A DNA stretch of 64,000 nt, taken from Escherichia coli (lineage in GTDB: Bacteria; Pseudomonadota; Gammaproteobacteria; Enterobacterales; Enterobacteriaceae). The notes below the pieces were generated by a model, which made no database searches, was not told where the DNA came from, and saw only the letters and a program-made list of their open reading frames with translations. Made by a program: the position numbers and the translations under genes. The stretch lies in the NCBI RefSeq assembly GCF_003334785.1, contig NZ_QOWV01000002.1; one strand, given 5' to 3'. Positions 63,585 through 64,000 of the stretch are shown piece by piece (the stretch's first letter is position 1; every line of letters starts with the position of its first letter).

Positions 63585-63612
63585 TCCAGTATCTAAGACT
63601 GGAGTCCAGTAT
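63585..63612. promoter_or_regulatory. Candidate operator palindromes overlapping the yfaX start codon
   Basis: CCAGT-N7-ACTGG and ACTGGA-g-TCCAGT inverted repeats; direct repeat TCCAGTAT at 63585 and 63605. Confidence 0.35.
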
Positions 63613-64000
63613 GTTGGAATCAAGCAAAGTTCCCGCCCTGACACGGGCTATTGATATTCTCAATTTGATTGCCCGCATTGGCCCCTGTAGTGCTGCGACG
63701 ATCATTGACACATTGGGAATCCCTAAAAGCACGGCCTATTTGCTGCTTAATGAACTCAGGCGTCAGCGTTTTCTTAGCCTTGATCACCAGGAAAATTTTT
63801 GTTTGTGGACCAGGCTGGTGGAGCTTTCCGGTCATGCGTTAAGCAAGATGGATCTCCGGGAACTGGCTCGACCGCGTTTGACGCAACTGATGGATACCAC
63901 CGGGCTGTTATGTCACCTGGGGATTATTGATAACGGCAGCGCTTATTACATTTTGAAAGTGGAGTCATCAGCCACTATCAGCGTGCGTTCCCATGAAGGA
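63611..64000 (+). CDS. yfaX: IclR-family transcriptional regulator YfaX/RhmR, 3'-truncated at window edge
   Basis: ATG at 63611; IclR-type HTH (SAATIIDTLGIPKSTAYLLLNEL); no stop before window end. Confidence 0.85.
   Translation, partial: MLESSKVPALTRAIDILNLIARIGPCSAATIIDTLGIPKSTAYLLLNELRRQRFLSLDHQENFCLWTRLVELSGHALSKMDLRELARPRLTQLMDTTGLLCHLGIIDNGSAYYILKVESSATISVRSHEG

Follow-up and report, generated by a model that had tools for sequence, protein, structure and literature searches.

The region that covers the start of the Escherichia coli gene rhmR (yfaX, b2248), which encodes the rhamnonate regulator, probably constitutes a tandem pair of IclR-type operators (63583-63620), to which the RhmR protein is predicted to bind in order to repress its own operon, rhmR-rhmD-rhmT-rhmA. 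The pair is formed by a strong palindrome placed over the start codon, hereafter O3, and by a weaker site located immediately upstream, O3'; two additional palindromes of the same type, O1 and O2, are present farther upstream in the spacer that separates yfaY from rhmR (Table 1). An autoregulatory operator of the IclR family over the rhmR start had been put forward in a preliminary description of this DNA; the idea finds support in the comparison of loci and in a published prediction, but the anatomy given there was only partly right.

The window, i.e., the whole stretch of 64,000 nucleotides that was analysed, ends in the E. coli region ais/nudI/yfaZ/yfaY/rhmR, where yfaY finishes at 63391 and the ATG of rhmR occupies 63611-63613. 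Homologues of RhmR show the Pfam domains PF09339 (HTH_IclR) and PF01614 (IclR_C), therefore a gene for a cognate IclR-family regulator is present at the locus. The comparison included 47 rhmR-rhmD-rhmT-rhmA loci, with RhmR identities from 98% down to 56%. Of these, 38 were orthologous loci from species-representative genomes, and 8 more distant loci were gathered via protein homologues; among the distant loci are those of Tolumonas (RhmR 75% identical), Vibrio mangrovi (65%), Pectobacterium and Sodalis, together with three from metagenomes (56-59%). The gene order is kept in all the distant loci and their upstream neighbours are unrelated.

Within E. coli, the query was matched by 5218 of 5426 complete genomes, approx. 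1,300 of which match only part of it. In six listed examples of these partial matches, just the first 64 bases after yfaY (63392-63455) are retained, followed by a truncated rhmA. In E. coli B7A (L050, 3501-4025), a deletion has eliminated rhmR, rhmD and rhmT together with all the regulatory DNA and the 5' portion of rhmA.

Table 1. Features of the yfaY-rhmR spacer and of the rhmR start, in window coordinates.
Feature	Position	Strand	Basis or remarks
O1, distal IclR-type palindrome TGTCCAACCTGTTGTACT	63447-63464		matrix score 21.3-21.5; 40/47 loci
CRP-like site 1, cGTGC-N6-TCACA	63480-63495		centre 63487.5; arms conserved, spacer variable
O2, IclR-type palindrome TCTCCAGTCTGCTGGACG	63511-63528		matrix score 19.7-20.0
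CRP-like site 2, TTTGA-N6-TCACA	63539-63554		centre 63546.5
-10-like hexamer GAGACT (pattern NANANT)	63576-63581	+	aligned across loci
Imperfect palindrome of 42 bp across O3' and O3, outer arms TGATTCCA / TGGAATCA	63581-63622		repeat search
O3', weak tandem site ATTCCAGTATCTAAGACT, holds the first TCCAGTAT	63583-63600		13/18 identical to O3
Shine-Dalgarno GGAG	63601-63604	+	6 nt upstream of the ATG; invariant in 39 close loci
O3, strong IclR-type palindrome AGTCCAGTATGTTGGAAT over the ATG, holds the second TCCAGTAT	63603-63620		18 bp; weight matrix and conservation
5' part of rhmR (yfaX, b2248), IclR-family regulator	63611-64000	+	translation and K-12 annotation; runs off the window

Conservation of the rhmR start region

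Alignment of the 39 close loci revealed two nearly invariant segments, 63579-63592 and 63601-63622, and three variable ones, i.e., approx. 20 nt upstream of 63576, 63593-63596 and 63599-63600. The invariance extends into the gene, given that the third positions of codons 2-4 are identical in 39/39 loci, and from codon 7 onward these positions vary freely. The conserved palindrome, which the preliminary description did not name, is TCCA-N6-TGGAA; it is found at O3 in 46/47 loci, the remaining one (L045) showing TCTA. In six loci (L029, L034, L041, L043, L044 and L046) the start codon is either an ATG located 3 nt downstream, with the loss of Leu2, or a TTG, which is the annotated rhmR start in Vibrio mangrovi; the region is found around position 3001 of L029, L034, L041, L043 and L044, and at 2854 of L046. 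The overlapping palindrome did not move in any of these six loci, hence its conservation is not explained by a coding or an initiation constraint.

The arrangement is the same in all 47 loci: the -10-like hexamer is followed by TTCCA-NN-AT, then by 11 nt that contain a GA and the Shine-Dalgarno sequence, and finally by (G)TCCA-NN-AT, which overlaps an inverted AT-NN-TGGAA. In the distant AT-rich loci the Shine-Dalgarno sequence is GAGG, TGAG or TTAG. The array of O3' and O3 is the sole upstream element shared by the 47 loci, in spite of their unrelated neighbourhoods.

The repeats originally noticed at this position were a direct repeat, TCCAGTAT, and two inverted repeats, CCAGT-N7-ACTGG and ACTGGA-g-TCCAGT. 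Direct reading and a repeat search both located the direct repeat at 63585-63592 and 63605-63612; it is conserved, and the pair belongs to an 11-nt family, GATTCCAGTAT/GAGTCCAGTAT, with a spacing of 20. The window contains six copies of TCCAGTAT against 1.18 expected, a number that was reached in none of 100 shuffles. The other four exact copies, at 619, 6006, 36285 and 54722, are not included in a full operator-like pattern. The inverted repeats are also present (TCCAGT-N7-ACTGGA at 63585-63603 and ACTGGA-g-TCCAGT at 63598-63610, from the sequence and the repeat search), and the exact TCCAGT-N7-ACTGGA is unique in the window, where the four other matches carry two mismatches each. As functional units, both inverted repeats were discarded, since 63599-63600 vary among the close loci. 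The CT of the ACTGG arm is a C in 26/39 and a T in 34/39 loci, so that ATTGG, ACCGG and ACAGG are also seen, and the only fixed part of the arm is the GGAG of the Shine-Dalgarno sequence. These inverted repeats are largely a by-product, because GGAG adjoining TCCA makes a palindrome automatically. Comparison of orthologues, which had been suggested as a check on the repeats, therefore upholds the direct repeat, whose copies are the left halves of two sites found in 47/47 loci, but not the ACTGG inverted repeats.

Other features of the same region were absent from that description. One is an outer inverted repeat of 8 nt, TGATTCCA (63581-88) and TGGAATCA (63615-22), which extends into codons 2-4; two more are TCCAGTATGTTGGA, a palindrome at 63605-18, and TCCAGTCTGCTGGA, which nearly repeats it at 63513-26. 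The composite pattern TCCA-NN-AT-N12-TCCA-NN-AT-NN-TGGA has one exact occurrence in the window, and 0.37 occurrences would be expected even if three mismatches were allowed. A separate heptamer, CTGATTC, appears three times, at the yfaY stop (63388), in the spacer of CRP-like site 1 (63486) and just before the left operator copy (63580), with spacings of 98 and 94 bp; this may be due to chance.

The upstream palindromes O1 and O2 allowed an independent evaluation of O3. In distant loci, O1 is perfectly palindromic (GTACAACCTGTTGTAC). In 36/47 loci O2 reads TCCA-N6-TGGA, the spacer being variable, and it is always located exactly 92 bp upstream of O3; this distance is preserved in Tolumonas and Vibrio, where the intervening DNA is unrelated. 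When the 18-mers of the 64-kb window were scored with a weight matrix built from O1 and O2 only, O3 reached 20.7, and the window maximum elsewhere was 14.7. From this score, above that of every other 18-mer of the window, it follows that O1, O2 and O3 are instances of one motif. The idea that O1 (63447-64) is the site of a different regulator was rejected, given that the weight matrix and the published table give the same motif.

The possibility that this region contains no dedicated element, and that its appearance results from chance together with the Shine-Dalgarno sequence, the start codon and the ordinary constraints on the first codons, is extremely improbable. The inverted repeats originally noticed do arise partly in this way, from GGAG beside TCCA with an unconserved ACT. 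Nevertheless, no variation is seen in the non-coding segment 63579-92 or at the synonymous sites of codons 2-4, next to neighbours that vary freely, the motif survives the shift of the start codon, the score of O3 tops the whole window and the exact composite pattern is unique; the flanks and RhmR (56-98% identity) are too divergent for the loci to be recent horizontal copies.

The upstream member of the pair is less well defined. In all 47 loci the distance between O3' and O3 is exactly 20 bp, but the matrix score of O3' is weak (0.2-2.2), which places the site in the top 0.05-0.1% of the window 18-mers and as the fourth best in the spacer. The match corresponds to a p of about 5e-4 to 1e-3; p<1e-3 was obtained in 44/47 loci with the full matrix, and in 34/47 once box F was omitted from it. 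The left half of O3' is good and the right half is degenerate, retaining only the invariant GA at 63597-98; the overlap of this right half with the ribosome-binding region could account for part of its conservation. Judged by sequence, each copy of the direct repeat TCCAGTAT is the left half-box of one member of this pair, whose spacing is 20 bp.

Promoter elements and folding of the leader

The hexamer that precedes O3' was aligned across the loci; other enterics show CACACT, AACACT, AATACT or GATACT at this place, Tolumonas and Vibrio have AATAAT, and L044 has TATACT. In this last locus, it is the -10 element of a TTGCAA-17-TATACT promoter, and in L046 a TTGACA-17-TAAATT promoter is found a few bases upstream of the aligned position, promoter-like matches being in these two loci no more numerous than in shuffled sequence. 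A generic sigma70 scan of the E. coli rhmR spacer found no promoter. This result would be explained by CRP-like site 2, whose centre at -41.5 corresponds to the class II position; a promoter that depends on an activator is expected to escape such a scan. Of the 47 loci, 42 have TGA-N6-TCACA at this fixed distance, the spacer being variable, and the site is replaced by a -35 hexamer in three loci with canonical sigma70 promoters, which include L044 and L046. From the conserved -10-like hexamer and the CRP-like site centred 41.5 bp upstream, we infer that rhmR transcription would start near 63588, that is, within O3'. If so, O3' would span approx. -5 to +13 and O3 +16 to +33, and a start placed inside the weak site fits autorepression by RhmR.

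In agreement with a role of CRP at this locus, yfaX is a CRP target in genomic SELEX (PMC3105977), and b2248 was predicted as a CRP target by the cross-species method PhyloScan (PMC1794230); the assignment of this published evidence to the exact bases 63480-63495 is our own, made by sequence. These bases, CRP-like site 1, are exactly midway between O1 (63447-64) and O2 (63511-28) in E. coli, an observation to which no claim is attached.

Transcripts may also reach rhmR from farther upstream. A near-consensus sigma54 motif, ATGGCACTGAATATGCT (10/12, with the GG and GC correctly spaced), is present on the + strand inside yfaY at 63293-63309. This motif is IS27, a sigma54 site detected in vivo by ChIP-seq, which lies 294 bp ahead of rhmR and is oriented in the sense direction (PMC4591121), and an RpoN genomic-SELEX peak was reported near it (PMC8743547), for which the motif accounts. 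No sigma54 promoter was found within the yfaY-rhmR spacer, and such a promoter was discarded as the origin of the peak, given that the motif sits inside yfaY instead. Just past the yfaY stop there is a perfect 9-bp hairpin, TGTGCCGGT-N7-ACCGGCACA (63403-63427), followed by TTCCCCC and no T-run; in the alignment it is confined to Escherichia. Transcription may run through this hairpin into rhmR, given that it lacks a T-run and was not called by the terminator scan.

These longer transcripts are relevant for another explanation of the conserved sequences, namely control at the RNA level, in which a stem would hide the ribosome-binding site and the AUG of rhmR and so limit translation. A 12-bp stem can indeed be drawn between UGAUUCCAGUAU (63581-92) and AUGUUGGAAUCA (63611-22), with an inner hairpin that involves the Shine-Dalgarno sequence. 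Folded from 63576, the RNA gives -15.9 kcal/mol (z -2.6), and the folds of Klebsiella and Mixta are similar, with z of -2.8 and -3.0, respectively. Moreover, the two imperfections of the DNA palindrome are G.U pairs on the sense strand, and in some lineages (L029, L043 and L045) double changes restore the pairing. On the other hand, the probable start near 63588 falls in the left arm, and a transcript that begins there folds no better than shuffles (z -0.67). Longer transcripts, from the yfaY sigma54 site (PMC4591121) or past the hairpin without a T-run, are possible; nevertheless, the sigma54 motif is present in just 5/47 loci, so it cannot explain a universal conservation.

The pair counts, taken over 27 distinct sequences, do not favour the stem either. 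The invariant core carries no covariation information, the G.U state is a single shared ancestral state, and at the variable positions the divergent lineages are mostly incompatible with the RNA (26 other and 8 A.C mismatches). The stem also leaves unexplained the invariant middle copy, GTCCA-NN-AT, and the two further copies of the same palindrome (63511-28 and 63447-64), whose distances to the promoter downstream are fixed. The region does not have the aspect of a translation-inhibiting leader, with its left arm at or upstream of the probable start, its incompatible mismatches and, in an Rfam search of the rhmR leader region, no family matches. Folding and pair counts thus gave no RNA-specific signal; the stem was rejected as the main function, and RNA-level control is considered unlikely.

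Both readings could be combined if the 42-bp palindrome acted as the RhmR operator in the DNA and, on the long yfaY transcripts, as the stem that hides the Shine-Dalgarno sequence and the AUG, so that only transcripts from the promoter controlled by RhmR and CRP, which begin inside the left arm, could be translated. This dual use is quite unlikely, but if true it would insulate rhmR from upstream transcription.

Published predictions and related regulators

The three strong sites at rhmR had already been predicted. In the study by Suvorova & Gelfand (2021, Front Microbiol 12:675815; PMC8222616), supplementary file 2, the YfaX/RhmR orthologous group is SSO_2309, and the predicted IclR-family sites listed for b2248 are TGTCCAaCCtGTTGTACT, TcTCCAGtCtGcTGgACg and aGTCCAGtatGTTGgAaT, with spacings of 64 and 92. 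Their positions are -163 (O1), -99 (O2) and -7 (O3), and equivalents are given for Shigella, Citrobacter rodentium, Salmonella, Enterobacter, Klebsiella and Tolumonas. The gene and the three strong sites are the same as those described here. That prediction is computational and contained in a supplementary table; it does not include the weak site at 63583-63600, and neither the CRP sites and the -10 hexamer nor the fact that the operator overlaps the Shine-Dalgarno sequence and the start codon are discussed there. No RhmR binding or expression experiments were found in the literature searched.

The same study defined, for group 1 of the IclR operators, the subgroup NGT-12-ACN with the consensus NGTYCRAW4TYGRACN (PMC8222616), with which O3, AGTCCAGTATGTTGGAAT, matches at 14/16 specified positions, as counted by reading. 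Tandem sites with centres 18-22 nt apart were reported in 94 orthologous groups and read as evidence of tetramer binding, and one of the two positional peaks of the site centres is at -3 to +1 from the gene start (PMC8222616). The rhmR arrangement resembles these operators in that a site centre is located at the gene start, and it may also share the tandem layout, the centres of O3' and O3 being 20 bp apart. It differs from them in the upstream partner, which is weak and whose right half is degenerate and shared in part with the ribosome-binding region.

Another arrangement that can be compared with this one is the operator of PcaU. This protein mainly activates aromatic catabolism, in which it differs from the role proposed for RhmR, and its third box is located approx. 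one helical turn from the palindrome, versus two at rhmR. The likeness lies in the three good half-boxes of the rhmR region, TTCCA-NN-AT, GTCCA-NN-AT and the inverted AT-NN-TGGAA, given that the three-box operator of PcaU is formed by a palindrome and an extra box needed for binding (Popp et al. 2002, as cited in PMC8222616).

The closest parallel in the kind of operon is offered by XynR (YagI) and YjhI, IclR-family regulators of the E. coli D-xylonate operons; as at rhmR, these operons group a regulator, a dehydratase, an aldolase and a transporter for a sugar acid (PMC12445098). In CRP SELEX, too, both appear as targets or next to targets (PMC3105977), and a 2-keto-3-deoxy sugar acid was reported as their natural effector (PMC13279387). 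No operator sequences are given in PMC13279387 or PMC12445098. The promoters of both regulators show palindromes of the same layout, TTCAG-N4-CTGAA. Upstream of the K-12 yjhI (L048), GTTCAGCATGCTGAAC is located at -78 from the ATG; in L049, TGTTCTATAATGTAGAACA lies over a TATAAT box upstream of yagE (-42) and TTCAGTCTGTTGAA in the first codons of xynR (+10). In the yjhI and xynR palindromes, GTTCAGCATGCTGAAC and TTCAGTCTGTTGAA, each half-site departs from that of rhmR at a single symmetric base, with TTCA in place of TCCA. Given that XynR and YjhI are just approx. 30% identical to RhmR, these paralogue promoters (yjhI, xynR and yagE) lend weak support to the RhmR operator.

This similarity raises the question of whether the array could be the DNA operator of a protein other than RhmR, e.g., a global regulator or a paralogue of the IclR family. 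Several such paralogues exist in E. coli, the choice of RhmR as the binding protein is deduced, and with palindromes that differ so little a cross-recognition is conceivable. Nevertheless, the array accompanies rhmR in 47/47 loci that belong to several orders, and no other regulator is constantly adjacent; RhmR is the only one that is always found with it. XynR and YjhI, besides their low identity with RhmR, have different recognition helices, and the published regulog gives the motif to the RhmR orthologous group (PMC8222616). The recognition helix IPKS[T/S]xY[L/I]LL is conserved among the RhmR orthologues, which fits the invariant TCCA core. A binding protein other than RhmR is therefore improbable.

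Proposed mechanism and implications

According to the mechanism that we propose, a RhmR tetramer (a dimer of dimers) would bind to one face of the DNA, given that the centres of O3' and O3 are 20 bp apart, approx. two helical turns. Directly downstream of the -10 element, the pair of sites would cover the transcription start, a 23-nt leader that includes the Shine-Dalgarno sequence, and codons 1-4. Bound at this position, RhmR would block RNA polymerase, either in initiation or in escape, and the operon would be repressed. O1 and O2, which flank the CRP-like sites, could add cooperative binding or looping, and CRP at -41.5 would supply activation. Release of RhmR would be brought about by L-rhamnonate or by its 2-keto-3-deoxy product. 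Repression, as well as induction by a sugar acid, is proposed on the model of XynR, YjhI and SL1344_3500. XynR is annotated as a repressor, and SL1344_3500 is reported to act through gene suppression (PMC12445098).

The conceptual gain is small, since the main site is an ordinary operator, already in the literature as a computational prediction, and the arrangement is common for the family. The new points are modest: the weak partner at 63583-63600, its placement straight after the -10 hexamer, and the persistence of the motif when the start codon shifts. If the proposal is true, the region might be used as a rhamnonate-responsive biosensor switch, a development that is under way with the xylonate regulators. 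Binding of RhmR would mean that the rhm operon has a compact and conserved control region, in which four IclR-type sites and two CRP sites serve one promoter, and in which the transcription start, the ribosome-binding site and the start codon would all be under the repressor.
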